64,000 bases of DNA from a candidate division WWE3 bacterium RAAC2_WWE3_1 (GTDB taxonomy: Bacteria > Patescibacteriota > WWE3 > UBA101185 > UBA10185). The notes below the pieces were generated by a model that saw nothing but the letters and a program-made list of their open reading frames with translations, did not search any database and was not told the origin of the DNA. The first letter of the stretch is position 1; each line of letters starts with the position of its first letter. The stretch is taken from assembly GCA_000503835.1 (NCBI GenBank), contig CP006914.1, positions 379,909-443,908 of the forward strand, in the 5' to 3' direction. Positions 39,542-60,182 of this stretch are shown one piece after another. Both the position numbers and the translations under genes were made by a program.

Positions 39542-41551
39542 ATGAAGCTGACTTCGCCCGTCGGAATTGTGCCAAAGATCGGGCCTAAATATAAAAAACT
39601 TTTGGAAAATTTAGAAATCAGGACGGTTCAGGATCTGGTGTATCACTTTCCTTTCAGATACGAAGATTATTCTAACGTAAAACACATTCGCAAATTACTG
39701 GAAAATGAAACAGCAACTGTTAAAGGAATTGTTGAATCGGTAACAAACATATTTACCCGAAACGGAAAAAGACTTACAAAAGTAGCCGTAAGCAACGGCA
39801 CTGAGAAAATCGATCTGATATTTTTCAATCAGCATTATTTAAAAACAACAATAAAAACTGGTCATGAGTATACGGTCAGCGGAAAAGTAGGAACCTTCGA
39901 CAGAAAACTTTCTTTTATAAGTCCCGAACTGGAAGAGAGTAGAGAAGTTAATTTGAACACCGGACGCCTGGTCCCGGTATATCCCGAGACTTATGGGGTA
40001 ACTTCCAAGTGGCTCCGGGCTAGAATTAACGACGTCGTGTCGGGGGAAATTGAACTTGAGGAATTTTTACCCGAAAATACGTTAAATAAACTTAATTTGA
40101 GTAATTTTAGTTGGGCACTTAACCAAATTCACTTTCCGGATATAGAAATTAACGCTCAAAAAGCTAAGATAAGGTTCCAATTCGAAGAGTTATTCCTTGA
40201 ACTTCTGAAAGTGGAAAAAAGACGCGTTCAGTGGGAATCTAAGCTTAAAAGTGTCGTAATGACGGTAAAAAATACTCAGATTGACTCTTTCATCCGTACG
40301 CTGCCCTTTAAACTCACAAATTCTCAGGAAAAAGCTATCAACGAGGTACTGAAAGACCAGACATTGGAACATCCTATGAACCGTTTACTGGAGGGGGATG
40401 TCGGCACAGGTAAAACGCTTGTTGCCCTGATTGCGGCCTACAACACGCACCTTAACGGGTTTAAAACTCTTTACATGGCTCCTACGGAGATACTTGCAAC
40501 CCAGCACTATGAAACTTTCACACGTCTTTTATCCCCACTGGGAGTAAAAATTGCCCTCATTACCGGATCCGTCAAGCCGGATGGCACCGACTTTGACATT
40601 CTTATAGGTACACACGCCCTCATCTATTCCAAAGAAAAATTTAAAAACGTAGAGCTGGTTGTTATAGACGAACAACACAGATTTGGCGTAGAGCAGAGGG
40701 GAAAAATCCTGGAAATGGCCAACGATGGAACAGTACCTCATCTACTTGCTATGACAGCCACGCCAATACCAAGAACACTTGCCCTTACCATTTACGGCGA
40801 CCTTTCAATATCGGTTTTAGATACTCATCCGAATAAGGAGAGGAAAATTTCCACAAAAGTGATACCCGAAAATGCGCGGGATAAGGCTTACCAATGGATA
40901 AGACAGAGAAACGAGCCCACTTTTATCGTCTGCCCTCTAATTGAAGAAAGCGAAACTCCGAGTTTTGAGAACGTAAAGGCCGCCGAAGCCGAATACGCCT
41001 TACTCAAAAAAACCTACTTTAAGGGCATCGAAATGGGTCTTCTCCACGGAAAAATGAAACCGAAAGAAAAAGAAGATGTTATTGAAAAGTTCAGAAAAGG
41101 CAAAATAAAGGTATTGGTGTCGACCCCGGTCATAGAAGTTGGGATAGACGTGCCTGAAGCCACCGTGATGGTCATAGAGAGCGCGGAAAGGTACGGACTG
41201 GCCAGTTTACATCAATTGCGGGGAAGAGTGGGCAGGGGGTCAGAAAAGGGCTACTGCTTTGCTTTTTTGAGTACTTATTCAAGAAACGCCTATACCAGAT
41301 TAAAAAACCTCGAAACCACAGACAACGGCATTGAACTTTCCGAGATAGACATGCAGGCAAGGGGACAAGGCGATATTTTCGGAGCAAGCCAGCACGGTTT
41401 CAAAAGATTTAAAATAGCCGACATGTTTAATGTCAAAATGCTCGAGGAAGCAAAACAGGAAGCTCAACAAATATACCCATTCTTGGACTATTACCCCCTA
41501 CTAAAGGAAAGGTTGACACAGGAAGCGGGAGAATATATACCTAACAACTAG
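39542..41551 (+). CDS. recG: ATP-dependent DNA helicase RecG
   Basis: N-terminal wedge/OB region, helicase motifs GDVGTGKT (I), DEQHRFGV (II), TATPIPRT (III), QLRGRVGRG (VI). Confidence 0.9.
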   Translation: MKLTSPVGIVPKIGPKYKKLLENLEIRTVQDLVYHFPFRYEDYSNVKHIRKLLENETATVKGIVESVTNIFTRNGKRLTKVAVSNGTEKIDLIFFNQHYLKTTIKTGHEYTVSGKVGTFDRKLSFISPELEESREVNLNTGRLVPVYPETYGVTSKWLRARINDVVSGEIELEEFLPENTLNKLNLSNFSWALNQIHFPDIEINAQKAKIRFQFEELFLELLKVEKRRVQWESKLKSVVMTVKNTQIDSFIRTLPFKLTNSQEKAINEVLKDQTLEHPMNRLLEGDVGTGKTLVALIAAYNTHLNGFKTLYMAPTEILATQHYETFTRLLSPLGVKIALITGSVKPDGTDFDILIGTHALIYSKEKFKNVELVVIDEQHRFGVEQRGKILEMANDGTVPHLLAMTATPIPRTLALTIYGDLSISVLDTHPNKERKISTKVIPENARDKAYQWIRQRNEPTFIVCPLIEESETPSFENVKAAEAEYALLKKTYFKGIEMGLLHGKMKPKEKEDVIEKFRKGKIKVLVSTPVIEVGIDVPEATVMVIESAERYGLASLHQLRGRVGRGSEKGYCFAFLSTYSRNAYTRLKNLETTDNGIELSEIDMQARGQGDIFGASQHGFKRFKIADMFNVKMLEEAKQEAQQIYPFLDYYPLLKERLTQEAGEYIPNN

Positions 41552-41552
41552 G

Positions 41553-42113
41553 ATGGAACTAAGAATCACAACAGGCTCCGCAAAAAATAAAAAGCTAGTA
41601 GCACCGGAATTACCCGGTTTCAGGGCAGTTCAGGAGATTGCCAAATCCTCAATGTTTTCTATTATCGGGGATCAGGTAGAGGGGGCTGTATGTTTGGATC
41701 TGTTCGCGGGAAGCGGAAATTTAGGTATTGAGGCTTTGAGCAGGGGCGCCGCCTGGTGCGATTTCGTGGATGGAAATAAGGAAAGCGTCGAAGCGATAAA
41801 GAAAAACGTGGAAAACTGCGGCTTTTTTGATAAGTCTTCGGTTTCCCTGAAAAACGCTGTTAAGTACGCCGCGGCTACCGACAAAAAGTACAATCTTATC
41901 TTTATGGATCCTTTCTACAACGACCTAAACCAGAGACACCTTCTCGGGCTACTTGCCGAAAGAATTAAGGAAAACGGTATTTTAGTGTATTTTCACTCTC
42001 CTGAATGCACCACAGAAGTGAACGACATGGTACAGAAAAGCGGACTTGTAATAACCGATAGTAGGGAATTTGGGGGAAGCGTTTTTGCCGTCATAACAAG
42101 GCTAGACAAATAA
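41553..42113 (+). CDS. rsmD: 16S rRNA (guanine966-N2)-methyltransferase
   Basis: LDLFAGSGNLGIEALSRGA SAM motif, DPFY motif (MDPFYND). Confidence 0.85.
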   Translation: MELRITTGSAKNKKLVAPELPGFRAVQEIAKSSMFSIIGDQVEGAVCLDLFAGSGNLGIEALSRGAAWCDFVDGNKESVEAIKKNVENCGFFDKSSVSLKNAVKYAAATDKKYNLIFMDPFYNDLNQRHLLGLLAERIKENGILVYFHSPECTTEVNDMVQKSGLVITDSREFGGSVFAVITRLDK

Positions 42114-42178: not shown

Positions 42179-42514
42179 ATGACAGTTTTTGATAGGGCGT
42201 TTTCGTACAATAAGGATTTGCATTTCATCAAAGAATTGGAAGCGGGAAACATAAGAATAAAAATAAGAATCACCCCCTTCCAGGCAGAAACCATCCGTAT
42301 GGAAGCATTTAAGGATGGCAAGAAAGTCGATACTTATATCGGCAGAAACGAGCTCGGGAGACATGACTTCCCAATCGTCTGGTGGATAGAAAGAAACAGT
42401 AAGTCAGGAAACAACTGGAACACCCTATTGCTTACTTGGTGGCTTGATACGGTTGTTCCTGAGATAGAGAGGGAAACTCTCAAAAGGAACATGCTGTCTC
42501 CAAGCGCCCGTTAG
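42179..42514 (+). CDS. Hypothetical protein (111 aa)
   Basis: AAGGAG SD 8 nt upstream; followed by terminator hairpin. Confidence 0.5.
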   Translation: MTVFDRAFSYNKDLHFIKELEAGNIRIKIRITPFQAETIRMEAFKDGKKVDTYIGRNELGRHDFPIVWWIERNSKSGNNWNTLLLTWWLDTVVPEIERETLKRNMLSPSAR

Positions 42515-42568: not shown

Positions 42569-42623
42569 CCTAAAACGGGTTCTATTTGACAGCAAAGCCT
42601 CAAACCTTTATATTTCACACTGT

Positions 42624-42770
42624 ATGGCAGTACCAAAAAGAAAACATTCTATATCAAGAACGAGACAGAAAAGGGACGCTCATTACAAAAGAGTGCGTGT
42701 CCATGCTGTAAAAACTTCGGACGACAAAGCTTATAAAAGACCTCACGTCGAAGAGTATATCGAGCTTTAA
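42624..42770 (+). CDS. rpmF: 50S ribosomal protein L32
   Basis: MAVPKRKHSISRTRQKRDAHYK... matches L32 N-terminal signature; 48 aa, below ORF-track cutoff. Confidence 0.8.
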   Translation: MAVPKRKHSISRTRQKRDAHYKRVRVHAVKTSDDKAYKRPHVEEYIEL

Positions 42771-42791: not shown

Positions 42792-43229
42792 ATGAAATCT
42801 TTCGCGGATCCGAGGCACACTTCCAGAAAACTTGCTTTGACTTCTATTTTTTGCTGGCTTTTTACGGAAACGGATAAAAACGACGCGATTATGCTGTCAA
42901 AAGACCTTTTGGAAGAGCAACCCGGAGAACAGGATACCGAGCTTACCGAATACATTTTTGAGGGCGTCAAAACCCACATTAATGAGATAGACAAGGTAAT
43001 AGAGGAGAGCGCGCCGGAGTGGCCTATTGACAAAATAGCCAAAGTTGATTTAGTAGTACTCAGAATCGCGGTTTTTGAACTGCTGTTCGGTAAAAAGGCA
43101 CCGGCCAAGGTTGTGGTGGATGAAGCCGTTGAACTGGCCAAGGAGTTCGGAAACGATACTTCACATAAATTTGTGAACGGGGTTCTAGGCACAGTAATAG
43201 GAAATTATTTGGAGAAAAAAGATGACTAG
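42792..43229 (+). CDS. nusB: Transcription antitermination factor NusB
   Basis: C-terminal NusB signature PAKVVVDEAVELAKEFGNDTSHKFVNGVLG. Confidence 0.8.
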   Translation: MKSFADPRHTSRKLALTSIFCWLFTETDKNDAIMLSKDLLEEQPGEQDTELTEYIFEGVKTHINEIDKVIEESAPEWPIDKIAKVDLVVLRIAVFELLFGKKAPAKVVVDEAVELAKEFGNDTSHKFVNGVLGTVIGNYLEKKDD

Positions 43230-43458
43230 CGATTATTTTGCAAAAACTAAAAAGGTTATAGAAGAAAAAACAGGCGTTTCGCCCGCCGACATACACGAAA
43301 CCTCCTTTTTCGAGGATGATCTCAACGTCGGAGAAATGGAGCTTCTTGAAATACTGTCCGAGCTTGAAGAGATGTTCAAAGTAGACCTTGTTTCCGAACA
43401 GGAAAACATTGTAACCGTTCAGGACATACTGGACCTGCTCAGCGAAAAAATTGATTAG
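43222..43458 (+). CDS. Acyl carrier protein homolog lacking the 4'-phosphopantetheine attachment Ser (DSL replaced by GEM)
   Basis: Aligns with ACP helix II/[27 protein letters not shown] vs E. coli [34 protein letters not shown] vs ITTVQAAIDYI; no Ser at the acceptor position. Confidence 0.65.
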   Translation: [78 protein letters not shown]

Positions 43459-43527
43459 TATCCGGCCGTATTTTACCCATGACTTTTGTCGCGGAGAAAG
43501 TTCGGAACGGACACGGAAAAGTCGATA

Positions 43528-44226
43528 ATGGCCTTTGATTTCGTCAAAACAAAACAAATATTGGGCGAAGATTTGTCCGATGAGAATCTGTTTAAAACAG
43601 CTTTTACCCATCGTTCTTATCTGAATGAACACCACGAATACGCGAACCCCTCCAACGAAAGACTGGAGTTCCTTGGGGACGCCGTACTTCAGCTCCTTTC
43701 CAGCGAATTTCTTTATAATACCTATACCGACGCCCCGGAAGGCGACCTAACGAACTACCGCTCATCGGTAGTTTGCACGTCTTCGCTTGCCCGGGAAGCT
43801 AAAAGAATGGAATACGGCAGTCTACTGCTCCTTTCCAACGGCGAAGAGGCAACAGGAGGAAGAGACCGGGAATACATTCTTGCAAACACATTCGAGGCTG
43901 TACTGGGTGCCCTTTACCTTGATAGAGGCCTTGAAAAATGTAGGAAGTTCCTGGAGAAAGAGCTTTTTTTCAAAATAAGTGATATCGTTACCGATAACGT
44001 CTACAGAGACGCCAAGTCCCAGTTTCAGGAGATGGCCCAGGATAAATTCGGTGTAACCCCCGTATATCAGGTAATCGACTCATGGGGCCCCGATCATGAA
44101 AAAACCTTTAAAATGGGCGTTTTCATAGGCAAAGAGAATTGGGGAACCGGCGAGGGAAAAAGTAAACAGAGGGCAGAGCAGGCAGCGGCCGAAAATGGTT
44201 TAAAAAGAATGGAGAAAGGAGATTAA
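43528..44226 (+). CDS. rnc: Ribonuclease III
   Basis: RNase III signature NERLEFLGDAVLQL, catalytic E (TFEAVLGALYLD), C-terminal dsRBD; start at internal Met MAFDF. Confidence 0.9.
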   Translation: MAFDFVKTKQILGEDLSDENLFKTAFTHRSYLNEHHEYANPSNERLEFLGDAVLQLLSSEFLYNTYTDAPEGDLTNYRSSVVCTSSLAREAKRMEYGSLLLLSNGEEATGGRDREYILANTFEAVLGALYLDRGLEKCRKFLEKELFFKISDIVTDNVYRDAKSQFQEMAQDKFGVTPVYQVIDSWGPDHEKTFKMGVFIGKENWGTGEGKSKQRAEQAAAENGLKRMEKGD

Positions 44227-44281
44227 AGGTTACCGTGGGTGTATAGACAACCACAACCCCATCTGCTAAAATCAACCAGTT

Positions 44282-44602
44282 ATGTCGGTATCAATCAGAT
44301 TAACAAGAACAGGTAGAAAAAATCTGCCCTCCTACAGGGTGGTGGCTACGCAGACCAGAACCAAAAGGGATGGTAAATTTTTGGACATAATAGGTTTCTA
44401 CAATCCCTCAACAATCCCGGCTTCCTTTGATTACGACAAAAAAAAGTTCCAGGAATGGGTCTCAAAAGGTGCGATAGTCTCGGATGCGGTAAAGAAAATG
44501 GTAGAGGGCAAGTACGAATATACAAAATATAAACCCGGTAAAGAAGAAGTGACAAAAGAAGTCGCTCCTGCCAAAGAAGAAGCTCCGGAACAAACAGCCT
44601 AA
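44282..44602 (+). CDS. rpsP: 30S ribosomal protein S16
   Basis: MSVSIRLTRTGRKNLPSYRVVATQTRTKRDGKFLDIIGFYNP typical S16. Confidence 0.9.
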   Translation: MSVSIRLTRTGRKNLPSYRVVATQTRTKRDGKFLDIIGFYNPSTIPASFDYDKKKFQEWVSKGAIVSDAVKKMVEGKYEYTKYKPGKEEVTKEVAPAKEEAPEQTA

Positions 44603-44603
44603 C

Positions 44604-44846
44604 ATGAAAGAGTTCATAACATACATTGTTCAACAGATAGTTTCCCACCCCGAAGCAATTGAAGTTGAGGAAGTCACCGAGGAAGGGGTTTTCGTCTACA
44701 CGATATCTGCGGCTAAAGAAGATATGGGTACACTTATCGGCAAAGAAGGCAGGAACATCAAAAGCATCAGAAATATGGCCAAGGCCAAGGCTATAAAAGA
44801 CGACATAAGGATAAGTGTTAACATTAAAGAAGATGATCAGATTTAA
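44604..44846 (+). CDS. KH-domain RNA-binding protein (YlqC/UPF0109-like)
   Basis: GxxG-like KH loop LIGKEGRNIKSIR; conserved position between rpsP and trmD. Confidence 0.75.
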   Translation: MKEFITYIVQQIVSHPEAIEVEEVTEEGVFVYTISAAKEDMGTLIGKEGRNIKSIRNMAKAKAIKDDIRISVNIKEDDQI

Positions 44847-45501
44847 CGTCCTCACTTTATTTCCCGAACTAATACAACCTCATTTAGATTTTTTACCCTT
44901 TAAAAGGGCGGTTGAAAAAAAGGCGGCCGAGTATAGATTATGGAATCTAAGAAATTACGCTCTCGACAAAAGAGGAACTGTGGACGACAAGCCTTATGGA
45001 GGGGGCACCGGAATGTTGTTAATGCCCGAACCCATTTACGACGCCTTAAGCGACATCCACACCATGCCGCCGGAAGATGTTATAAAAAAGGACGGTGTGC
45101 GGGTAATACTGTTATCTCCGCGCGGTAAAAAATATGATCAAAAGTACGCGGAGGATCTATCAAAGGCACGGGAAATTACCTTGATTTGCGGAAGATACGA
45201 AGGTATTGACGCCAGAATAGAGGAAAATTACGTGACCGACGTTGTAAGCATAGGTGATTTCGTTCTTTCCGGCGGGGAAGTGCCGGTTTTAGCAATTTTA
45301 GAGAGCGTTACACGATTACTTCCACAGGTTATTGAAAAGGAAGACGCCGTAACCAATGAGTCATTCTCGAACGGCACCATTGAGTACCCGCAGTACACCA
45401 GACCCGAGGTCTTCAAAGGAAAAAAAGTGCCTGACGTTCTTCTTTCCGGCAACCATAAAGAAATAGAGAAGTGGAAAAGAGAGAATTCTCCGACAGTATA
45501 A
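44815..45501 (+). CDS. trmD: tRNA (guanine37-N1)-methyltransferase
   Basis: MIRFNVLTLFPEL N-terminus, SPOUT knot motifs (YGGGTGMLLMPEP, LICGRYEGIDAR). Confidence 0.9.
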   Translation: MLTLKKMIRFNVLTLFPELIQPHLDFLPFKRAVEKKAAEYRLWNLRNYALDKRGTVDDKPYGGGTGMLLMPEPIYDALSDIHTMPPEDVIKKDGVRVILLSPRGKKYDQKYAEDLSKAREITLICGRYEGIDARIEENYVTDVVSIGDFVLSGGEVPVLAILESVTRLLPQVIEKEDAVTNESFSNGTIEYPQYTRPEVFKGKKVPDVLLSGNHKEIEKWKRENSPTV

Positions 45502-45528: not shown

Positions 45529-46392
45529 CTATAAATCGAAGGGCGTTTCCGGTGTTTCGGTGGCCCCCGCCGGTTGTTCTACAGGTACCTCTTCGGCAGC
45601 TTCCCCCGCAGGAGCGGGAGTTTCCGTACTCTCAACTACTTCGCTTTCTGCAATATCAGGATTAAGAAATTCGTAATATCTATAATCTTTTATGCTGTTT
45701 ATAAATGCGACAAAAGCCGGGGACGTAATATCCAAGGTGATGGGGTCATCCGTTACCGCAACAGATTGAACATACATATACGGAGAATCAACATTCACGT
45801 TAACATTCACCAAACCAGTTTCCTGCGTACTGGAATCCTCACCAAATCTGAATGTGGTTACATAGGCTATTCTTGCAGATTTTTCGATTTCCTGCATAAA
45901 CACTACCATTTGGTCATAAGAACCGGTCACGGTCGCCGCAACATTAACAATACCGCTTATATCTTCCTTCCTCTGGTCAGAGATAGCATCCGCGGCAGCT
46001 CCGGTTGCCCCCGAATAGGAGTAGTTCAAACGATCGACGGACATACCGGCGTTGGTCGCGATTTGGTGTATCTGGTCAAGAAGCTGTGGGACGTTAGATT
46101 CGGAAACGTACAGCTTCTCGACAAGATCGGCATTCTCCTGCAGAACGGTATTAAAATCTTTCATTTTAGAAAGAGCCGAAGCTTTGGTATTTAACACTTC
46201 CAGCACAGCGGTCTGTGAAGTAAGCTGTGTCTTAAGTTCGTTAACCTTGGTGTAGGTAGGTTTGATATATAAAAAGAACAATAAAGCGGTAACCGCCAAA
46301 CCAATGATAGGGAAGACAAAATCCACAATAATGTCTTTTATGGCACCTATGTTTATTTCTTTTATTTTATTTTCTATGTTCTCTTCGTTCAT
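45529..46392 (-). CDS. pilO: Type IV pilus assembly protein PilO-like (with acidic/Pro-rich C-terminal tail)
   Basis: Single N-terminal TM, coiled-coil, position directly downstream of pilM-pilN. Confidence 0.6.
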   Translation of the reverse strand: MNEENIENKIKEINIGAIKDIIVDFVFPIIGLAVTALLFFLYIKPTYTKVNELKTQLTSQTAVLEVLNTKASALSKMKDFNTVLQENADLVEKLYVSESNVPQLLDQIHQIATNAGMSVDRLNYSYSGATGAAADAISDQRKEDISGIVNVAATVTGSYDQMVVFMQEIEKSARIAYVTTFRFGEDSSTQETGLVNVNVNVDSPYMYVQSVAVTDDPITLDITSPAFVAFINSIKDYRYYEFLNPDIAESEVVESTETPAPAGEAAEEVPVEQPAGATETPETPFDL

Positions 46393-46402
46393 ATTTCTTC
46401 GT

Positions 46403-46978
46403 TTACAATTTTATTTTCGACGTATCGTAGTTAACCACAATAAAAAACCTGACCGTACTTTTATTTTGATCCAGTGTCACGGAATTAAGTTTTACTTCGG
46501 TAAAAAGTTCTTTTAGTTCTGCGTCACCCCCGGGAAAATCTTTGTTTAAAAGGCTGTTTATAAAATTGGCGATCAGAATATAATTGTCGGCGTCCCCCGT
46601 GTAATTTACGATTCCGTCCTTTATATCCATGGAGTCTATTCTTACACCCTCAGGCTGTCTCACTTTCAGTTCGGCCAATAAACGGGAGTAATGCGGTCTT
46701 TCGGCAATAACTTTGGAGATAGAATTATATTTCAGGTCCAAATTTCTCACAACTATCTCGGTGGCGGAAAGAGATTTTATTTTTGCTCGCTGACTTTCAA
46801 TCTGCGAATTTACGTCGTTTACCTTCGTGGATATCTCCGAATGTGCGTAGTAAAGATATCCGGAAACGCCCAGCGCCGCAACTGTCAACAGAATAAAAAG
46901 CACCGTAGTGCCCTTAACAGCCTTGCCTTTGGCTTGATACTGTATTTCTTCCTGCGGGATAAGGTTAATATTTTCCAT
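46403..46978 (-). CDS. pilN: Type IV pilus assembly protein PilN
   Basis: N-terminal INLIPQEE motif and single TM typical of PilN; follows pilM. Confidence 0.7.
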   Translation of the reverse strand: MENINLIPQEEIQYQAKGKAVKGTTVLFILLTVAALGVSGYLYYAHSEISTKVNDVNSQIESQRAKIKSLSATEIVVRNLDLKYNSISKVIAERPHYSRLLAELKVRQPEGVRIDSMDIKDGIVNYTGDADNYILIANFINSLLNKDFPGGDAELKELFTEVKLNSVTLDQNKSTVRFFIVVNYDTSKIKL

Positions 46979-48010
46979 TTAAACCTCTCTTAGAGCCAAA
47001 CCTACGGCGGTAGAATACATCGGACCGTCCTGGCTCAGATCCTTTCTTCGTGGCTCTAACTTTTGTGAAAACTGGAAATTGGCCAGCGGATTGGCAAGTT
47101 GTACCTCAAAATCAACATTTTTTGCTACATAAGTTAAAAGTTCAGGCATTAGGGCAGTACCTCCGGTTAGTATCAACCTCTTAATGTTAGCAGAGCTATT
47201 ATGCTTTGTGAAGAATACTGTTGCTCTTTTTATCTCAAGAATCAGGTTGTCCATTATAGGTCTTATTACGTTAAATATTTTGCCCTCGGCCTGCATGGGA
47301 TCCATTCCATAAACTTTTTTGTATTCTTCAGCCTGTTGAACATCCAAGTTCAGCTCCTGCTGGATTGCCTTTGTAATTATGTCCCCTCCCACCGGAATGC
47401 TTCTGGTAAAGCGTACCGCGCCGCCGTAGGTAACGACTATTATCGATCCCGAGAATCCCAAATCCATAACTATAGTCCCGAGAGGGGCGTCGGCCGAATC
47501 TCCTAAGACCCTGCCCAAAGCAAGAGTTTCGGGTTCTATTGCGTAAGGCACGAGCTTGGCTTTTTTAGCGATGGCAACATACCTTTCTAAAACATCTTTT
47601 TTGGCGGCGACTACCTGAACATTTATTTTATCTTTTTCGGTAAGATCGGGGTCGAGTCTTTGATATGAGAGGTTTATCTGGTCAAGTGGCAGGGGAATAT
47701 ATTGCTCAGCCTCATATCTCACGGCACTTCTCAGCTCCTTATCACTCATTGCGGGCACTTTTATAACGCGCATAAATACCTGACTCTCGTCCAAACCCAT
47801 TACAACATGGGAGGTTCCGAATCCCATTTCCTTGAAAAACTCGGCTATATGCTCGGCGATCAGATCCATATCTTCTCTTTTATCGGACAAAAAGTTGACC
47901 TTGGGATTTTCGTACGTGCCTATATTGGAAATTATCAACCCTTCTTTACGTTTATCCAGTTCTACGGCTCTAAATGTACTTCTGCCAAAATTTAAACCTA
48001 CAATGGGCAT
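46979..48010 (-). CDS. pilM: Type IV pilus assembly ATPase-like protein PilM (actin-like fold)
   Basis: N-terminal IGLNFGRSTFRAVEL and actin/FtsA-like phosphate motifs (IVMDLGFSGS). Confidence 0.85.
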   Translation of the reverse strand: MPIVGLNFGRSTFRAVELDKRKEGLIISNIGTYENPKVNFLSDKREDMDLIAEHIAEFFKEMGFGTSHVVMGLDESQVFMRVIKVPAMSDKELRSAVRYEAEQYIPLPLDQINLSYQRLDPDLTEKDKINVQVVAAKKDVLERYVAIAKKAKLVPYAIEPETLALGRVLGDSADAPLGTIVMDLGFSGSIIVVTYGGAVRFTRSIPVGGDIITKAIQQELNLDVQQAEEYKKVYGMDPMQAEGKIFNVIRPIMDNLILEIKRATVFFTKHNSSANIKRLILTGGTALMPELLTYVAKNVDFEVQLANPLANFQFSQKLEPRRKDLSQDGPMYSTAVGLALREV

Positions 48011-48078
48011 ACTAAAATTCTACTATCCTTTCAGGACTCAGACAAGACCGATTTTACGTTTATTCTGCGACTTTTAGG

Positions 48079-48900
48079 CTAAGGTCCGTAATTGTTGGTA
48101 AGATCCGAAACTTCGCTTGTCTGAAGTAGTGCATAATCGAAGAAAGCCGGAGCCATGGCATCTGTTTTAAGAACAGTTATATGCTTCACCGTTTCTCCGG
48201 AGTAACCGTGAGCGTCCATTATTATCCCCTGCCTTGGGATCGTCTGACCAATCGCAGGTACCGCATAAACGACCGCTCTTTCGTAATAGGGTCTGATACG
48301 GATATATTTAGGCGTCACCATAGTATTTATTGTGAAACAGTTTGGGTAGCCGTGGTTGGCCACGGCAGTATCAAATCCGTTGCCGCTGTAAGGAGAAGAC
48401 ACGGAATTTACGGCATAGGAATTTATTTTTGTGACCGCACTTTCTTCGTATATATACGCCGCATGTATTGAGGACGCACTTTGCCAGCAAACATCAAGGG
48501 AGGAACCTGATGTGTACCCCTGCAAACTTATTTGACCGGCCTCTCCCGGCTCGAGGCCTAGCGAAAAAGGATCGGTGGAATTTCCGGAATACTCTAAAGT
48601 AACATTGGCGCTGATAATATTTCCGTTGGGCTCCGTTATGCTGTAGGTGCAGGCACTTCCGCAGTTCCCGAACGCTATGTATCCTTCCAATGTTTCATTT
48701 GGAACCACCAGAAGACGCTCAATTATAGCCTCTGCGGCTCTGAGAGCTTTTGTACTGTCATCTGTCCTTACAAAACCTTTAAGTGTGCTCATGAAACGGT
48801 TCGATATGGTTACCCCGATTGTCGTGGCGACTATCATTAAGAAAACCATCACTACCAGGGTTTGCCCTGTCTGGTCTTTGATTTTTGACGGAATTCTCAT
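48079..48900 (-). CDS. PilX/ComGG-like pilus-associated protein (paralog of 52832..53710)
   Basis: Degenerate pilin-like N-terminal helix GQTLVVMVFLMIVATTIGV without G/E cleavage motif; shared motifs DDSTKALRAAEAIIERLL and C-terminal APAFFDYA with paralog. Confidence 0.45.
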   Translation of the reverse strand: MRIPSKIKDQTGQTLVVMVFLMIVATTIGVTISNRFMSTLKGFVRTDDSTKALRAAEAIIERLLVVPNETLEGYIAFGNCGSACTYSITEPNGNIISANVTLEYSGNSTDPFSLGLEPGEAGQISLQGYTSGSSLDVCWQSASSIHAAYIYEESAVTKINSYAVNSVSSPYSGNGFDTAVANHGYPNCFTINTMVTPKYIRIRPYYERAVVYAVPAIGQTIPRQGIIMDAHGYSGETVKHITVLKTDAMAPAFFDYALLQTSEVSDLTNNYGP

Positions 48901-48911
48901 ATCAATATGGC

Positions 48912-49436
48912 CTAATAGCTCCTGATAGTAACCGCGTTAAGTATATCCGAATACTCGCCGCTATTTCCTGACACCGGTGCAAATCTTATGTGCATCTTCA
49001 CCGTTTGTGGGGTAGTTCCCACAACGGAGAAACATGTGCTACCTGTCAACATACAGGAAACAGCCACGCCACCGGTACCAAAGCTGCTGGTCAGGTCCAC
49101 GGCGGCTGCACCGGTGGGGTTTTCTACCTGCAACTTATTTCCATTAAGTTTATAGGTGACGCTAGCACTTCCTTCTTTTGAAATAGTGAGAGTATTGGTG
49201 TATCCTACTGAGGTAATGCCCGTAGCGCTGCGTAACTCACGTTCAATCTTTAGTCCCACAAAATTTGCCTGCTGTTCAACTTCATTTTTTATCTGAGTCT
49301 TATTGTAACTGCGAACAAGGGAAACCAGTATATCGTTCGTCACCCCAATGGATATTCCCAAAAGAGCAATAACTACCAACAACTCCACAAGGGTAAATCC
49401 TTTATTTTCTTTTTCCAAAGTTGCCCTGATTTTCAT
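48912..49436 (-). CDS. Minor (pseudo)pilin, prepilin-type N-terminal methylation domain
   Basis: KGFTLVELLVVIALLGI class III signal; start at internal Met (ATGA overlap with upstream gene). Confidence 0.7.
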   Translation of the reverse strand: MKIRATLEKENKGFTLVELLVVIALLGISIGVTNDILVSLVRSYNKTQIKNEVEQQANFVGLKIERELRSATGITSVGYTNTLTISKEGSASVTYKLNGNKLQVENPTGAAAVDLTSSFGTGGVAVSCMLTGSTCFSVVGTTPQTVKMHIRFAPVSGNSGEYSDILNAVTIRSY

Positions 49437-49915
49437 TTTTGTTGCCAATTCGTAAAATCGGTATATACAAATGTTTCTTTGTTCTGACCGCCGACACTCC
49501 ACGCAGACTGCACTGTGACCTGGATGGCCGTGCTAACGGGCGCGGCGTAAAAACGTGTGAGGATGGGTGTGCCCCCGGCGGCTGTCGGTACACTTCCGGC
49601 TTTTACAACTAACGGATCCGCATTAATATCTATATAACACCCGCCCAACGCCGGCGTACATCCGGATGTCGTACTAACAAAAGTTGCCCAGCTGGTTGCT
49701 GATTGATCCCTGTAAGCCCGGACTAACTCCATTTGTGTATTGGCAGCTTTTGTACCTTCCATCAATAAAGTACTCTGCAACGATGTCCTTAACGAAAACA
49801 GGGTGAGGGAGAGTAGAGAAGTAATTACCACAACCGAAATACCCAACGCCGCTATTACTTCCACAAGTCCTATCCCTTTTTGTTCTTTCAAAAAATTTTT
49901 TAAAGTTTGCCGCAT
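49433..49915 (-). CDS. Minor (pseudo)pilin
   Basis: KGIGLVEVIAALGISVVV prepilin-like N-terminus (Glu5 present). Confidence 0.65.
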   Translation of the reverse strand: MRQTLKNFLKEQKGIGLVEVIAALGISVVVITSLLSLTLFSLRTSLQSTLLMEGTKAANTQMELVRAYRDQSATSWATFVSTTSGCTPALGGCYIDINADPLVVKAGSVPTAAGGTPILTRFYAAPVSTAIQVTVQSAWSVGGQNKETFVYTDFTNWQQK

Positions 49916-49920
49916 AGTTA

Positions 49921-50469
49921 CTAATTTGAATTGAATATCAACCCGGCTTTATTAATTAGTATGTTTTTGACTGTTGCTGTATCCGACGAATGCCGAAGGC
50001 TTATAGTGGTATCCGGTATAGGAACAGTTAATCCGGTAGTAGCATTTCTCTCAAAAACCGAACCGTCTTCTAAACTGAATAGGAGACAATGTGCGCCGGA
50101 TGAAACAATCGAAATGCCGGACGAAAGTGTTACTGTCTGCTGGAGTGTTGCGTTAACAGTACAGCTGTTGGAAGCAGTTAAGTAAAAGCTGTATGTTCCA
50201 TTAGAACCTGCTACGTCGGAATATAGAACAGCCCAATAAAGAGCGGGGTTGCCGTTTATCAAAGTGTCTGCCCCTGTTCCCGTCAGCGCCCTATTTTGTG
50301 CACTCCTCAAGTCGCTTTTCAAATTTTCCTGCGCCTGCTTTAAAGTTTGGTTTCTGGTGTAACCGGAAAAAGAGGGAATCATTATCCCTGAAACTACCGC
50401 AAGAATACCTACAACAATCATTAACTCCACCAATGTAAATCCTTTACTAGCCGAGCGGGGCAGTTTCAT
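49921..50469 (-). CDS. Minor (pseudo)pilin (GspH/FimT-like)
   Basis: KGFTLVELMIVVGILAVV class III signal. Confidence 0.7.
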   Translation of the reverse strand: MKLPRSASKGFTLVELMIVVGILAVVSGIMIPSFSGYTRNQTLKQAQENLKSDLRSAQNRALTGTGADTLINGNPALYWAVLYSDVAGSNGTYSFYLTASNSCTVNATLQQTVTLSSGISIVSSGAHCLLFSLEDGSVFERNATTGLTVPIPDTTISLRHSSDTATVKNILINKAGLIFNSN

Positions 50470-50490
50470 ATATAAATACTAGCACAAAAA

Positions 50491-50982
50491 TTATGGTGTA
50501 ATCAGCAGTAAGTTGACGCCCATCTCATATTTTGCGGGATCGTTGCCGCCGTCGGAAGAAGCTTCCTCGGTTAATTGCTCTAAACGGGTGCTGATCTCGT
50601 AGCCTGCAGTGTTGTGGATATACTCATAATGGTATGTCGTATCATTTATAGGATCGGTGGGATATTTTGATATGTAATCGGAGAGATCTACCGGAATCCA
50701 ACCCGCCACAGCCGAGTATATATTCGGCGATCCTGTGGGAACTATATCGCTCGTGTACAAAAAACTTTCCTGCCCGGGATATTGACCGTAATCAAGTTTG
50801 TATTCATTAACGGCCCTGTCTAAAGTTGAGACGTCTGATAATCTTTTGTTATCACGGGCTTTGCCTTTTGAAGAAGCCGGGGATATAAGTGAAATGACGG
50901 TACCCATGAGTACCAGTAAGACTGCCGTAACGATGGCTATCTCCAGAAGAGTGAATGCGTTTGTATCAACGAACCTTTTCAT
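50491..50982 (-). CDS. Type IV pilin / GspG-like pseudopilin
   Basis: NAFTLLEIAIVTAVLLVL (Ala at -1) followed by GspG-type KARDNKRLSD. Confidence 0.65.
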   Translation of the reverse strand: MKRFVDTNAFTLLEIAIVTAVLLVLMGTVISLISPASSKGKARDNKRLSDVSTLDRAVNEYKLDYGQYPGQESFLYTSDIVPTGSPNIYSAVAGWIPVDLSDYISKYPTDPINDTTYHYEYIHNTAGYEISTRLEQLTEEASSDGGNDPAKYEMGVNLLLITP

Positions 50983-50984
50983 GA

Positions 50985-51512
50985 TTAAAAAGGGTTTTGG
51001 ACGGCGTAACAGTTAGTATTGGTACCACAATTACACCATGACGCAAAAGTACAGGCAGAAACAGCACTGCATCTTGAAGTGATGGATGCATCTATTTCCA
51101 TACGGGCTATTAAAGCATATCTCGAGGCAGTTGCTCTATAACTGTAGCCATAGGCAGCATCTGCGCAACCCGCAAAAACATCGGTACCCTGAGACGGGTC
51201 CACAGGTAATTGACTTATATAACTTGTAGGGGATATGAGAGCTCCTAAACCTGTGGTTGCATTATTGACACTTGCCGAAACGAAGGCTGCACTTGGGACC
51301 GGATAACTACGTTTGTCCGTAAAATATAACTCTAAGGCTGTTTGTATCCTTTTTAAATCAGATACCCTCTGCGAGTCACGGGACTTCTGCCTGACACCCT
51401 GAACATTTATTGCATTTAAAACAACACCACTTAGAATACCTATTACGCTTATAACTATTAGAAGCTCTATTAAGGTGAATCCTAAATTGGTTTTTTTGTT
51501 TTTAAAATTCAT
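50985..51512 (-). CDS. Type IV pilin / GspG-like
   Basis: LGFTLIELLIVISVIGILSG ... KSRDSQRVSDL. Confidence 0.75.
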   Translation of the reverse strand: MNFKNKKTNLGFTLIELLIVISVIGILSGVVLNAINVQGVRQKSRDSQRVSDLKRIQTALELYFTDKRSYPVPSAAFVSASVNNATTGLGALISPTSYISQLPVDPSQGTDVFAGCADAAYGYSYRATASRYALIARMEIDASITSRCSAVSACTFASWCNCGTNTNCYAVQNPF

Positions 51513-51524
51513 GGTGTTGCAAAA

Positions 51525-52067
51525 TTAAAGACAAGACGCCCCTGTCGAAGCCAGGTTACATACCTGTCCCCCCGCACCAAGGTCATTTCCAGTTGCAGAA
51601 CCGTTGCAGGTAGCTGCGATCGGACAATCCAATACAACCCCGCCACACTCAGGTTTGCCGCCGGTATACGAAGCGTTATGGGGAGACACAAATTTGTAAA
51701 GCCTGCTCTGTGAATTTAAAACGCCCACGCAGAAGAAATTTATATTACCCTCCGTCATCGTATAGTAAACATACTGAGAACCGGGCCAGGAGTTTAGATA
51801 AGTCGACAGCATAGGATTGACAAGAACATTTGTATCAGGAACACCCGCACTACTGACGGGATACTTACCCTCACCGGCATAGTAAGCTTCGATTGCGGCA
51901 GCAACATTCTGTAAGTTCGATATCTTTACACCATCCTGAGCCCTTTCCCTTTGTTTTGTAGGATTTATAACTGCCACAGTTATACCAGCCAATATCCCTA
52001 TAATAGAAATTACTAAGAGTAATTCAACTAAAGTGAGTCCCTGATTTTTATAATTGTAATTTTTCAC
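51525..52067 (-). CDS. Type IV pilin / GspG-like
   Basis: QGLTLVELLLVISIIGILAG ... RERAQDGVKISNL. Confidence 0.75.
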   Translation of the reverse strand: MKNYNYKNQGLTLVELLLVISIIGILAGITVAVINPTKQRERAQDGVKISNLQNVAAAIEAYYAGEGKYPVSSAGVPDTNVLVNPMLSTYLNSWPGSQYVYYTMTEGNINFFCVGVLNSQSRLYKFVSPHNASYTGGKPECGGVVLDCPIAATCNGSATGNDLGAGGQVCNLASTGASCL

Positions 52068-52121
52068 GATATTTTAAAAACTTACCGGGCTCAATAAAGA
52101 GCCCGGAAGTATATAACCTAA

Positions 52122-52685
52122 CTAAGGCGTCACACAGTTCGCGGGAGGCGATGCGGTATCACAATGCTGGATTTGTCCTGCTGCAGTACCATTGTTCATG
52201 TATCTGAACACAGTAGTTCCGGCACCAAACGATTTAGCGTAAATCGTAAAATTGGGGCTCGAGGCGGTCCCCATGTAGCGGTACAAACACGTGTTACCGG
52301 AACCCGGAGCTGTTGAACCCGTGTACCCGTTCACCGCACCGCAAGTATCTGGTAGTTGATTTCCCGTAACAATAAAGTCACAAGTGTAATCCGCACCACC
52401 GGCAGCACAGCTGGCATTAGGCGAAGAGGCTGAGGCCGAAAGTCCGGAAATAAACTGTACATCGTTAGGAGAGTTACCATACGCTGAAATATACCCCTGC
52501 GTAGCAAGAGCCACTTTGTTTATTGTAGCCTTAACATTGGCATCCCTGGCCTTACTTTGTTGGGCTTGGGGATCTATAACAGCAATCAAAACACCGGCTA
52601 AAATACCGATGATAACGATAACCAATAAAAGCTCGATAAGTGTAAAACCCGAAGCAGAAATCATTCTCTTTCTCAATTCTTTCAT
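52122..52685 (-). CDS. Type IV pilin / GspG-like
   Basis: SGFTLIELLLVIVIIGILAG ... KARDANVKATIN. Confidence 0.75.
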   Translation of the reverse strand: MKELRKRMISASGFTLIELLLVIVIIGILAGVLIAVIDPQAQQSKARDANVKATINKVALATQGYISAYGNSPNDVQFISGLSASASSPNASCAAGGADYTCDFIVTGNQLPDTCGAVNGYTGSTAPGSGNTCLYRYMGTASSPNFTIYAKSFGAGTTVFRYMNNGTAAGQIQHCDTASPPANCVTP

Positions 52686-52831
52686 CTGCTTCTCACCCCC
52701 CTCCTTCTATCTAATCCAATTCCAGATTTTAAAATTAACTTGGGCAGTTTATACATCTCTTCTTAAATTATGACTTCGCCCATAATGAGTGTCAATACGA
52801 TTCCGCCTTTATCGGGCAGGCTTTGAATAAA

Positions 52832-53710
52832 CTAGGGCACATCGTTGTTCGAAAATATTGCGTAGTCAAAAAATGCAGGGGCTGTATTGTAAGATCTGTA
52901 GACCACGATTGCCTTTGTGGTTTTAATGTCTCCATCCTGAACAAGCTCTCCCCTTGAATACAATCTGTACCCCTGAGCCGGTAGAGAAGAGGGGCTCACG
53001 GGGACGACTGCAACTTTTGAACCCTGAAAGATACTCCTGACTCTGAGCCCGGTCATGCCTGTAACCGACACATTGTGACAATAGGGAAGGGGATACCCCT
53101 CGCGGATAGCCTCGCCTTTGGCATCCGTAAAACCGGTTGAGGATATGTCGGTGCTAAAAACCAAATTTCCCGAAGCTTTTAAAAAATTTCGGGTCGTCGT
53201 AACCGGTCCGTACAAAATATATTCTATTGCGGAGCTGCTATTCTGCCAGCACAGTCTTATCGAGTTCATGCCGGTCAACTCGATATTCTTGGTCTGACCT
53301 GACGGAATATCGGTTTCGTAGTATGCGGTGCTACCCATAATATCCGTGTGGCTGAAAGTTTTAGCGCTCAACACCGCTCTTGACTCAGCGTTGTCGGACA
53401 CGGCTTTTTGATAATTCAGGACACATCTGGTTGTATCGCCGGGGATTGAAGAAAAACCCATTTCCTGACAATTTGGGTTTTTAGCTGAAAGCCTGTCTAA
53501 AAGCTGTTCGGACTGCGCAAGTAGTCTGTCTATACCGCCTTCGGCGGCAGCGAACACTCTGGCGGATGTGTCAGACCTGGAGACCCGTGAAGACACCTGC
53601 AGCGTTCGACTGCTCACTGCAACTCCCACGGACAGAGCTATGGTCATCGCAACAACAACGAATAATAGAGCCTGACCATTGTTATTTAATTTCCTAAATT
53701 GTCCTTTCAT
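52832..53710 (-). CDS. PilX/ComGG-like pilus-associated protein (paralog of 48079..48900)
   Basis: GQALLFVVVAMTIALSVGV N-helix, DTSARVFAAAEGGIDRLL, C-terminal APAFFDYAIF; start at internal Met overlapping upstream stop. Confidence 0.45.
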   Translation of the reverse strand: MKGQFRKLNNNGQALLFVVVAMTIALSVGVAVSSRTLQVSSRVSRSDTSARVFAAAEGGIDRLLAQSEQLLDRLSAKNPNCQEMGFSSIPGDTTRCVLNYQKAVSDNAESRAVLSAKTFSHTDIMGSTAYYETDIPSGQTKNIELTGMNSIRLCWQNSSSAIEYILYGPVTTTRNFLKASGNLVFSTDISSTGFTDAKGEAIREGYPLPYCHNVSVTGMTGLRVRSIFQGSKVAVVPVSPSSLPAQGYRLYSRGELVQDGDIKTTKAIVVYRSYNTAPAFFDYAIFSNNDVP

Positions 53711-53711
53711 A

Positions 53712-55850: not shown

Positions 55851-56377
55851 GGCCGTTCTTTCACAATGATACAGTCCGGTCCAAGAATACTGCAATCATC
55901 ATTCTTACATTTTGTAAACACCATATCTCCGACTATAGCTGTCTTCATAAAATCAAATCCGGAAGATATAAATATCTGGTTTATATTTGTAAATGCTGCA
56001 GTTCTGTCGGAAGAACATTCAAAAGACCGGTCCGACTTGATTCCTGAATCCGTAACGGTAACTCGGCCTGTGTTTAAATCCAAAATATTATCTATAACAA
56101 AAAGCTTGTAGTTATTAAAAATTTCTGCCCGTTTCTCAGGATTGCTGTTGTAATCACTAAATTCTTCAGACCCTTTGTTTTGCTTGTTTACACCGGGATA
56201 CCGCCCGACATTGGGATCTACCACATACGACTCGTCAAAATATATGGAAAATCGGGAATCTTCCCGGGTCCCGGCACTTTTTCGGACAAGGCTGTTCTCA
56301 AAGAAACGGCTCACAAAATACATTCCCAAGCCTATGAGAATCAAAATCATGAGCAGCAAGATCTTTTCTCTCTTCAC
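55847..56377 (-). CDS. Membrane-anchored hypothetical protein
   Basis: N-terminal TM KILLLMILILIGLGMYFV, 176 aa. Confidence 0.5.
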   Translation of the reverse strand: MKREKILLLMILILIGLGMYFVSRFFENSLVRKSAGTREDSRFSIYFDESYVVDPNVGRYPGVNKQNKGSEEFSDYNSNPEKRAEIFNNYKLFVIDNILDLNTGRVTVTDSGIKSDRSFECSSDRTAAFTNINQIFISSGFDFMKTAIVGDMVFTKCKNDDCSILGPDCIIVKERP

Positions 56378-56476
56378 TAGTTAATTATATGAAGATTATC
56401 AAGGTTAGGTCAATGAAAAAGAAGGGGGTCGGTTAAAGTTACATTTAAACCGACCCTTAAGTAAAAGTTCCTTAAA

Positions 56477-57238
56477 CTACTTGTGACTTTCTACCCAACC
56501 GGGAAAGATATCGGGGCGGGACAGGATGAGCGAATACTCTTCCGCGGTAACCGGTATGATCTTCAGAGGATCGGGCGGTAAATCATCCGGAAAATTAAGC
56601 CCGTATTCCGAAGCCACGTTCTGCATGAACTTTGTTTCGTGCACCCACTCCCAAACAGAAGTCGGGTTGTACACCGACCAGTTAACGTCCGGGTCTATGA
56701 ACGGGCCGTTGTACGGGTAGAGCATGTATGCGTAGGACGTAGACACGTTTGAACCCTTTGCAAATTTATAGAAATTTGCAAGAAACAAGTAGTTACCGGG
56801 GGTTACGGTTCTCTTAGGCTGGTAAATTCCGATAACACATGAATCGGGTTTGTTTACAACAGCGTTCGCCACACCGTTCAAGCCGTTCCCGCAGACGGAG
56901 GTCTCGTAGTTCCATCCCAGGTTTATCCGCAAAAACTCGAGCTGTGAACCGTAAAATGTATACCCACTTAGCGGTGTAGCAGACAGTACCGGAGTCCGGG
57001 TTGCTGTCGATGTGGCGGTACTGGAAGGAACTGGTGTACTTGAGGGAACCTGCGTACCCGTCGGAACCGGAGTAAATTCTATCGTATTTGTTGCACTAGC
57101 AACTAAAGTCACACCCGTGACCTCTACAGCTTCCGGCTTCGGAAGAGTCCCCGATATCCCCGACCACGCTACCACACCAATGACTACAGCAACGAGCAAA
57201 ACAGCAACTCCAACCGGAAAGAACCGTTTTTTGTCCAT
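56477..57238 (-). CDS. Secreted/membrane-anchored protein with Thr/Pro/Ser-rich linker
   Basis: N-terminal anchor FFPVGVAVLLVAVVIGVVAW followed by low-complexity TPVPSSTPVPSSTATSTATRTPV. Confidence 0.5.
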   Translation of the reverse strand: MDKKRFFPVGVAVLLVAVVIGVVAWSGISGTLPKPEAVEVTGVTLVASATNTIEFTPVPTGTQVPSSTPVPSSTATSTATRTPVLSATPLSGYTFYGSQLEFLRINLGWNYETSVCGNGLNGVANAVVNKPDSCVIGIYQPKRTVTPGNYLFLANFYKFAKGSNVSTSYAYMLYPYNGPFIDPDVNWSVYNPTSVWEWVHETKFMQNVASEYGLNFPDDLPPDPLKIIPVTAEEYSLILSRPDIFPGWVESHK

Positions 57239-57392
57239 CTCCTCGCCTCCTTTTCTCTCTCAGATTATTTGACTTTATTTGGGATAATTGCTCTTAAAGA
57301 CTAACTGCAAAATAGCATAAAAAGGCCTGCGGTACAACTTAAGGCACATTAATTGAAAATACCGGTCGAGCAAAACGGAGTCTTATTTTAGA

Positions 57393-57776
57393 TTAAACGC
57401 CCGAAAACCTTCCCACTTCCTCAACAACCTTATCGGGATTCACTTCGGATTTTATCAGGTAGCCGTCGGCGCCAAGCTTAAAAGCTTCCTGAATAATGTG
57501 CTCACTGTTCAGGTTGGTAAGAACAACCACAGGGCCTTTTTTCAACTCCGGTGTTTCCTTAAGGTCCTTCAATATCTTAAGACCGTCCTTACCCGGAAGC
57601 ATTATATCCAGGAGCAGTATGCTCCAGTCGGAATTTTTAATCTTGTCTCCTCCAATCTCCCCGTTAGGAGCTTGGTCAACCACATAACCCGCATTTTGCA
57701 GGACTTCCGCATAGATGGTTCTAATATCCTGCTCGTCCTCAATTATTAGTACTTTGTTTTTTGTTTTATCAGGCAT
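57393..57776 (-). CDS. Stand-alone response regulator receiver (CheY-like)
   Basis: KVLIIEDE...LLLDIMLPGKDG (phospho-acceptor Asp), T and K positions conserved (LTNL ... K). Confidence 0.8.
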   Translation of the reverse strand: MPDKTKNKVLIIEDEQDIRTIYAEVLQNAGYVVDQAPNGEIGGDKIKNSDWSILLLDIMLPGKDGLKILKDLKETPELKKGPVVVLTNLNSEHIIQEAFKLGADGYLIKSEVNPDKVVEEVGRFSGV

Positions 57777-60156: not shown

Positions 60157-60182
60157 CTTTCTCGCTGATTGCCGGCAACCAA

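Follow-up and report, generated by a model that had tools for sequence, protein, structure and literature searches.

An acyl carrier protein ortholog predicted to lack its phosphopantetheine acceptor is kept under purifying selection in WWE3 bacteria

Why would a bacterium maintain the gene for an acyl carrier protein (ACP) that seems to have lost the residue to which its cofactor is attached? That residue, a serine, is generally held to be strictly conserved in ACPs. The question arises from a 78-amino-acid (aa) open reading frame (ORF) that lies between nusB and rnc in a 64,000-nucleotide (nt) stretch of the candidate division WWE3 bacterium RAAC2_WWE3_1 (contig CP006914.1, positions 379,909 to 443,908), which we refer to as the window and in whose coordinates all positions are given. 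Our results point to an ACP-like gene that occupies the ancestral place of acpP and whose product is predicted to lack the acceptor site. The gene is under strong selection despite the loss of the cofactor serine, and its job is therefore probably unrelated to fatty-acid carriage. We put at roughly 65% the probability that it is a descendant of acpP whose product now serves another protein as a docking or regulatory subunit that needs no cofactor.

Homology, the acceptor site and the wider family

The analysis concerns the following features of the window:
43222..43458, + strand: ACP-like gene, putative positional ortholog of acpP without the phosphopantetheine acceptor, 78 aa (ORF, hidden Markov model matches, PDB matches, predicted fold, and the ratio of nonsynonymous to synonymous substitution rates, dN/dS)
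43315..43344, + strand: degenerate 'DSL' site, codons D32-D-L-N-V-G-E-M-E-L41 (ungapped HMMER alignment, MAFFT and structural model)
43336..43377, + strand: helix II, the acidic 'recognition helix', residues 39-52 (family alignment)

The ORF runs from an ATG to a TAG, has a GGAG 7 nt 5' of its start, and shares 8 nt with the 3' end of nusB. NCBIfam ACP models match residues 3-76 with E = 8e-11 to 1e-8, yet the scores of 34-42 bits lie below the curated cut-offs of 66-106. Specifically, the best model gives 41.6 bits (cut-off 71) and TIGR00517 gives 34.4 bits (cut-off 70.45), while the Pfam PP-binding score of 16.1 bits does not reach the gathering score of 20.8. With phmmer, the protein matched 51 ACP chains in the PDB, the top one being 2l0q (E = 5e-7). 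An AlphaFold2 model built from a 34-sequence alignment (pLDDT 88.9) contains four helices, at residues 2-17, 38-52, 57-62, and 66-77. When this model was compared with the PDB using Foldseek, the top 50 matches were ACPs only, led by the apo-ACP of T. maritima (6lvu) at a TM-score of 0.91 and a root mean square deviation of 1.2 Å. The ACP complexes 9mvz, 7bvc, and 5wkp were among the top structural neighbors, and 9gm6 (MukB) was also matched. The net charge is about -15, close to a mean of -16.7 over 182 family sequences. By sequence comparison and modeled fold, then, the protein is an ACP homolog. An earlier note, made from the DNA letters, had aligned it to ACP helices II-III; the homology stood, but the restriction to those helices did not, as the similarity spans the full protein. 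On the opposite strand, a 191-aa ORF (43060-43635) crosses the same region; it was rejected as spurious because the + strand frames encode conserved proteins with dN/dS far below 1.

The acceptor serine itself is gone. In the phmmer/HMMER alignment to ACPs, which runs without gaps from residue 7 to residue 58 and so takes in loop I and helix II, Glu38 (codon 43333-43335) stands opposite the acceptor Ser36 of E. coli ACP, and Gly37 (43330-43332) stands opposite Asp35; MAFFT agrees. In the PDB alignment, DLGADSLD of ACP pairs with DLNVGEME of the ACP-like protein, and helix II of the AlphaFold2 model begins exactly at residue 38. We also considered whether a shifted gap could place a serine at the acceptor site. 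Because the serines closest to Glu38 are S28 (-10) and S46 (+8), no plausible shift does so, and in an ungapped alignment this candidate was ruled out. The replacement of the acceptor serine claimed in the earlier note is thereby borne out. In addition, a D35N substitution by itself keeps AcpS from modifying ACPs in vivo (bioRxiv 10.1101/2025.01.28.635281), and the ACP-like protein has therefore lost not only the acceptor but also a residue that is key to recognition. The acidic face of helix II is another matter: E40, E43, E49, and E50 correspond to D38, E41, E47, and E48 in the E. coli protein, and among 111 serine-less relatives at least 96% have an acidic residue at each of them. Judged from the sequence, the protein is predicted to be unable to carry phosphopantetheine at the canonical site, and acyl carriage by known chemistry would be impossible for it.

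If the gene were decaying, its rate of protein change should betray it. Nei-Gojobori dN/dS values were obtained between the window and five WWE3 relatives, with the same genome pairs for all genes. The ranges are approximate, as dS was above 1 in most pairs and near saturation:
ACP-like gene: 0.037-0.10
NusB: 0.02-0.07
Rnc: 0.017-0.037
S16: 0.03-0.07
KH-domain protein: 0.01-0.06
TrmD: 0.04-0.08
L32: 0.04-0.18
RsmD: 0.085-0.15

The ACP-like gene is clearly not neutral and is under purifying selection in the range of its essential neighbors, which gives substance to the earlier suggestion that it has been retained between nusB and rnc. At long range, NusB and Rnc (73% and 66% identity, respectively, in the comparison with locus L013) are somewhat slower to diverge than the ACP-like protein (49%).

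The serine-less protein is not a peculiarity of one genome. A word-indexed protein search returned 34 homologs that are 49-96% identical, several of them labeled candidate division WWE3 or Patescibacteria, and a scan of species-representative genomes found 32 loci with the gene, almost all in WWE3. A profile search of 1.84 billion cluster representatives gave 141 proteins below 1e-10, and a second profile search gave 183 below 1e-8, including a large subgroup of 80-83 aa with a member from Curtissbacteria (Microgenomates). After pooling and deduplication, 182 distinct serine-less sequences from WWE3 and Microgenomates were available. Polyketide synthases (PKS) among the matches of the first profile search owe their high scores only to summed tandem carrier domains. 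For the gene itself, identity as a carrier domain of a PKS or a nonribosomal peptide synthetase was rejected, since it stands alone among housekeeping genes at all loci. Current database labels for the relatives read 'acyl carrier protein', 'phosphopantetheine-binding protein', or 'hypothetical'.

Among the 182 sequences, the acceptor column holds Glu (108), Asp (45), Gln (12), Pro (5), Ala (4), His (3), Asn (2), Lys (2), and Gly (1), so that Glu or Asp accounts for 84% and Phe never occurs. The column before it is Gly in 98, Thr in 37, Ser in 26, Asp in 13, and Ala in 5. No other column contains a conserved serine, the highest being S28 at 80%. One subgroup carries DLNADQL, which is the canonical DLNADSL with the serine alone changed, and this confirms the register of the alignment. 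Furthermore, D33-L34-N35 ahead of helix II is essentially invariant, the DDLN motif is invariant in the family, and the ORF is intact at 75-83 aa in all 182 sequences. Among syntenic orthologs, a serine in the acceptor column was found only in a Woesebacteria protein and two near-identical relatives, and a search with the Woesebacteria ortholog returned only two proteins, both near-identical. This ortholog (L031:4846-5088) has its acceptor-column serine between two glycines (G-S-G), and its helix II has lost its acidic character (DDLHMGSGDISDLIHLINNKY).

The acpP slot between nusB and rnc

Where does such a gene come from? Its surroundings offer an answer. The genes flanking it in the window, all on the + strand, are as follows:
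39542..42113, + strand: recG and rsmD, upstream synteny anchors (Pfam Cons_hypoth95 for rsmD, tblastn synteny, RecG domains in relatives)
42624..42770, + strand: rpmF (L32), upstream anchor as in the E. coli cluster (Pfam Ribosomal_L32p 7e-7, TIGR01031)
42792..43229, + strand: nusB (Pfam NusB 2.9e-32, TIGR01951 2.3e-35)
43528..44226, + strand: rnc, encoding RNase III (TIGR02191 4.8e-73)
44282..45501, + strand: rpsP, a gene for a KH-domain protein (KhpA-like), and trmD, downstream anchors (tblastn synteny, Pfam in relatives)

With the ACP-like gene at 43222-43458, these coordinates agree with the order rpmF, nusB, ACP-like gene, rnc given in the earlier note. We place the start of rnc at ATG 43528 (MAFDF...), although the longest ORF opens at TTG 43486, because a close relative (L003) has an in-frame stop within 43486-43527 and homolog matches begin at residue 15. 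The GTG at 44815 taken as the start of trmD presents the same problem of an over-long ORF.

By tblastn synteny, the order recG-rsmD-(rpmF)-nusB-ACP-like-rnc-rpsP-KH-trmD was present in all 32 genome loci. The same recG-to-trmD order was found in six of six divergent members with contigs that we examined, down to about 30% identity. In the divergent members, nusB ends 4-11 nt inside the ACP-like gene, and the start of rnc lies about -20 to +70 nt from the ACP-like stop.

Comparable arrangements are known from bacteria that make fatty acids with a canonical ACP. B. subtilis has the operons fapR-plsX-fabD-fabG-acpA (PMC1950310) and acpA-rnc-smc-ftsY (PMC4838370). The E. coli cluster reads yceD-rpmF-plsX-fabH-fabD-fabG-acpP-fabF. 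The wider order in B. subtilis, which we take to be recG-fapR-plsX-fabD-fabG-acpA-rnc-smc-ftsY-ylxM-ffh-rpsP-ylqC(KH)-ylqD-rimM-trmD, would presumably share its recG-to-trmD backbone with the window once lipid, smc, and signal recognition particle genes are left aside.

A metagenome scan with an RNase III profile, in which the region upstream of rnc was inspected in 80 loci, recovered several states of this slot:
plsX-acpP-rnc with a canonical D-S-(L/V) ACP: 11/80 loci
fabD/G-acpP-fabF-rnc: 3/80 loci
high-scoring serine-less ACP between nusB and rnc, in the order nusB-ACP-like-rnc-rpsP-KH-trmD: 8/80 loci
ACP-like ORF in the same place, more degenerate and without the acidic helix as well: 5/80 loci
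nusB abutting rnc, without an ACP-like ORF: 31/80 loci (within L050-L121)

These loci form a series that leads from plsX/fab-acpP-rnc through nusB-ACP(no Ser)-rnc to nusB-rnc. Because a serine-bearing acpP with plsX or fab genes occupies the same slot elsewhere, the ACP-like gene would be the positional ortholog of acpP from whose surroundings the lipid genes were deleted, and the loci in which nusB abuts rnc imply that the ACP relic has itself been deleted repeatedly. The proposal in the earlier note that this is an acpP slot is supported from three directions, namely rpmF upstream as in E. coli, rnc downstream as in B. subtilis, and the 11 plsX-acpP-rnc loci with a DS-type ACP. Among the short metagenome contigs, a canonical (DS) ACP, P0131, was seen to be translationally coupled to a gene for a CDP-alcohol phosphatidyltransferase (L037:170-948), which is an unusual neighbor for acpP.

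The lipid-synthesis background is in keeping with such a history. A Pfam scan of the roughly 50 ORFs in the 64-kb window detected no plsX, fab, or acpS gene and no gene for an Sfp-type or other phosphopantetheinyl transferase (PPTase), which extends to the whole window what the earlier note had said of the missing plsX and fab genes beside rpmF. Furthermore, no canonical ACP was found in the window or in the flanks inspected in WWE3 and Microgenomates. No lipid biosynthesis pathway was identifiable in the complete WWE3 genome RAAC2 (PMC3812714), and surveyed genomes of the Candidate Phyla Radiation (CPR) were without enzymes that make or use ACP (bioRxiv 465690).

Compared with the housekeeping ACP (E. 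coli AcpP, B. subtilis AcpA; TIGR00517, PF00550), the protein is alike in its length of about 78 aa, its charge of about -15, its four-helix fold, its acidic helix II, and its slot, with rpmF upstream and rnc immediately downstream. It differs in having Glu for Ser36, Gly for Asp35, scores below the cut-offs, and no adjacent plsX or fab gene. Since fold, acidic helix, and synteny are those of an ACP whereas the serine, Asp35, and score thresholds are not, the protein is best regarded as derived from ACP, and not as a functional ACP. On the whole, the interpretation in the earlier note, an ACP relic with a probable role outside acyl carriage, is supported.

Possible functions

If the protein does not carry acyl groups, then what might it do? 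The nearest precedent comes from parasites. In P. falciparum, a mitochondrial ACP (mACP) with Phe in place of the acceptor serine is essential through its binding of Isd11-Nfs1 after loss of type II fatty acid synthesis (FASII), and the authors of that study found no serine-less ACP outside Apicomplexa and Vitrella (PMC8547962). Like mACP, the ACP-like protein is an ACP ortholog in which the acceptor serine is substituted and which is kept under selection. The apicomplexan protein was retained after local loss of FASII and PPTase; for the ACP-like protein, the counterpart of that loss rests on the window scan and the literature. The two differ in that mACP is eukaryotic and organellar, with a hydrophobic Phe lying within the interface with Isd11, a LYR-motif protein, whereas 84% of the sequences in our family have Glu or Asp at the corresponding position. 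To our knowledge, LYR-motif proteins are eukaryotic, and none is known in bacteria. As an analogy, the best reading is that the ACP-like protein would be a bacterial counterpart of the apicomplexan mACP.

Other complexes illustrate how an ACP can work as a structural partner. For example, apo-AcpP and holo-AcpP activate the MukB ATPase equally (PMC8602292), which provides a bacterial precedent for ACP as a pure protein subunit, in that case of an SMC-like ATPase. However, E. coli AcpP keeps its serine and also serves FASII, MukBEF is limited to gamma-proteobacteria, and neither smc nor mukB adjoins the ACP-like gene, unlike the acpA-rnc-smc-ftsY order of B. subtilis. ACP likewise docks via helices II and III in AcpM on MmpL5 and EmbA-EmbB and in the mitochondrial ACP-LYRM of NFS1-ISD11, but most such complexes use the (acyl-)phosphopantetheine arm, which the ACP-like protein is predicted to be unable to carry.

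We therefore propose the following course of events for a cofactor-independent subunit. Ancestors of WWE3 and Microgenomates may have lost the plsX and fab genes that preceded acpP, after which the prosthetic-group site would have been lost as well, with Ser36 changing to Glu or Asp and Asp35 to Gly, Thr, or Ser. The retained ACP fold and acidic helix II could dock on basic patches of partner proteins, so that one of the 'moonlighting' protein-protein functions of ACPs would have been preserved. The residue at the old serine position, mostly acidic, might mimic the charge of the phosphate or cap the helix. The gene would be cotranscribed and translationally coupled with nusB and rnc, and as a first guess, held with low confidence, the partner could belong to the machinery that transcribes or processes rRNA (NusB/NusE or RNase III).

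Several observations weigh against this proposal. The ratios on which the argument from selection depends come from near-saturated dS values, and the absence of acpS and fab genes rests on the window scan and the literature rather than on the whole genome. Ala, Gly, Lys, and Pro (also His, Asn, and Gln) occur at the acceptor column; as the residue is not invariant, an acidic one is not obligatory and a strict phosphomimetic interpretation is weakened. The gene has been lost in 31 of the 80 rnc loci, and is thus dispensable or replaceable in many CPR lineages. Among these losses is L050, which is fairly closely related: the C-terminus of its NusB shares 72% identity with that of the window. Five further loci contain the degenerate ORFs (L083:1136-1462, L095:1424-1744, L104:3584-3928, L112:453-728, and L122:1-210; E = 1e-6 to 1e-10), which may be further-diverged subfamilies of other CPR lineages. 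In addition, mirror-tree analysis of rate covariation with NusB and Rnc singled out no partner. Finally, the nusB-X-rnc order may reflect inherited synteny in compact genomes and not functional linkage.

This last point bears directly on a narrower form of the docking-subunit proposal, in which the protein belongs specifically to the flanking rRNA machinery, as a subunit or a regulator of NusB/NusE antitermination or of RNase III; being acidic, it might for example mimic RNA and so regulate RNase III, or it might assist in assembly. The overlap with nusB and the closeness of rnc, maintained in relatives down to about 30% identity, would fit such a role, as would the strongly negative charge of the window protein and its family. 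A consensus scan found no + strand terminator-like site between rpmF and the end of rnc, and with five proteins in the mirror-tree analysis, the partial correlation of 0.52 between the ACP-like protein and NusB was the highest. Moreover, mitochondrial ACP belongs to the MALSU1-L0R8F8-ACP module on assembly intermediates of the mitoribosome large subunit. Yet ordinary ACP genes linked to plsX or fab also adjoin rnc, so that the position of the ACP-like gene would be inherited and not newly selected, and nusB and rnc remain adjacent without the gene in the 31 loci. With seven proteins, the correlation with NusB was 0.37, below the 0.45 of the unrelated pair TrmD-RecG, and the spacer between the ACP-like gene and rnc gave no support for a structured RNA or for a hairpin through which RNase III might regulate itself (z = -0.87). 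On balance, we regard a specific tie to the flanking rRNA machinery as doubtful. The bolder version, in which the serine-less ACP is a dedicated component of ribosome or rRNA biogenesis that binds NusB/NusE, RNase III, or a large-subunit intermediate via helix II, is a long shot.

The remaining explanations part from a docking subunit altogether. One could suppose that the protein is a second, specialized ACP paralog and that a canonical ACP, AcpS, and acyl-ACP enzymes are encoded elsewhere in the genome. Our scan covered 64 kb of that genome, some CPR bacteria such as Nealsonbacteria have partial FASII gene sets (bioRxiv 465690), and horizontal acquisition of acpP has been reported for some Patescibacteria (PMC12455944). 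But the gene fills the ancestral acpP slot between rpmF and rnc, the published surveys of the complete WWE3 genome and of CPR bacteria cited above found neither the pathway nor the enzymes, and a canonical ACP was absent from the window and the inspected flanks, all of which makes a paralog quite improbable. It is very improbable that the gene is a nonfunctional relic of acpP heading for deletion. Loss in many related lineages, strong degeneration in others, and faster divergence than NusB and Rnc are what decay would produce; a dN/dS that equals that of essential neighbors, an ORF intact in every family member, an invariant DDLN, the acidic helix II, and a confidently predicted fold are not. 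Barely credible is continued service as a carrier that is modified at a noncanonical residue (Ser or Thr at -1, or Ser28) or by a noncanonical transferase. The serines (26/182) and threonines (37/182) at -1, the prevalence of Ser28, and the acceptor-column serine of the Woesebacteria protein could be read in its favor. However, Gly occupies -1 in the window protein and in most WWE3 members, and these also lack a serine within 8-10 residues, Ser28 is not invariant and sits in loop I and not at the helix N-terminus, and no PPTase gene is present in the window. As a shifted, conserved acceptor, the -1 residue was ruled out: it varies among G, T, S, D, and A and swaps among close relatives, and is therefore not a conserved modification site.

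A cofactor-independent subunit derived from acpP would have several implications. Our search of the literature found no earlier description of serine-less ACP orthologs from bacteria or CPR. The apicomplexan mACP was the only lineage-wide exception to the acceptor serine that we found there, and the ACP-like family extends this pattern to bacteria, with the serine lost from the housekeeping ACP ortholog in at least two candidate phyla (WWE3/Katanobacteria and part of Microgenomates). Labels such as 'acyl carrier protein' can falsely imply a capacity for lipid synthesis in metabolic reconstructions of CPR bacteria. More generally, non-lipid functions of ACP are known from scattered cases, such as MukB, SpoT, and IscS, and are difficult to approach in model organisms, where lipid synthesis cannot proceed without ACP. 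The serine-less family represents a natural experiment that isolates these functions in bacteria. If the ribosome-biogenesis interpretation were true, ACP and ribosome biogenesis would be tied by an ancient link that needs no cofactor, one that would underlie the rpmF-plsX-acpP and acpP-rnc linkages as well as the mitoribosome role of mitochondrial ACP. CPR bacteria would then hold a natural 'separation-of-function' allele of ACP in which moonlighting is split from lipid synthesis. The significance is tempered by the repeated loss of the gene in sister lineages.

Transcription signals and the rest of the window

The lack of a + strand terminator-like site before the end of rnc suggests that rpmF, nusB, the ACP-like gene, and rnc form one transcription unit, and the overlap of nusB with the ACP-like gene suggests translational coupling. 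A candidate promoter precedes the unit:
42586..42614, + strand: promoter-like TTGACA-17-TATATT, 11/12, before rpmF (consensus scan only)

A further sigma-70-like -35/-10 match, from the same consensus scan only, was found at 44244-44272. The two matches, both strong, end only 9 nt before the ATG codons of rpmF (42624) and rpsP (44282), a spacing that would yield leaderless or near-leaderless mRNAs. In the gap between rsmD and rpmF, a 111-aa ORF (42179-42514) matched no family and could be detected only in the closest relative (L001, 50% identity), and the content of this slot varies between relatives.

The remainder of the window consists of typical CPR housekeeping genes together with a type IV pilus cluster. 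A trigger factor ORF at 19532-20431 (299 aa) has the Trigger_N and Trigger_C domains and no match to the PPIase (FKBP) domain. Two long ORFs, 56-2053 (665 aa) and 53712-55895 (727 aa), have no Pfam match at E <= 1e-5. The type IV pilus cluster lies on the - strand (45529-63952) and includes pilO, pilN, and pilM, several N-methyl pseudopilins, a prepilin peptidase, a PilC-like T2SSF protein, and two T2SSE ATPases. Its junction with trmD, in which trmD meets pilO-pilN-pilM, is kept from WWE3 to Curtissbacteria loci (L035, L041-L044).

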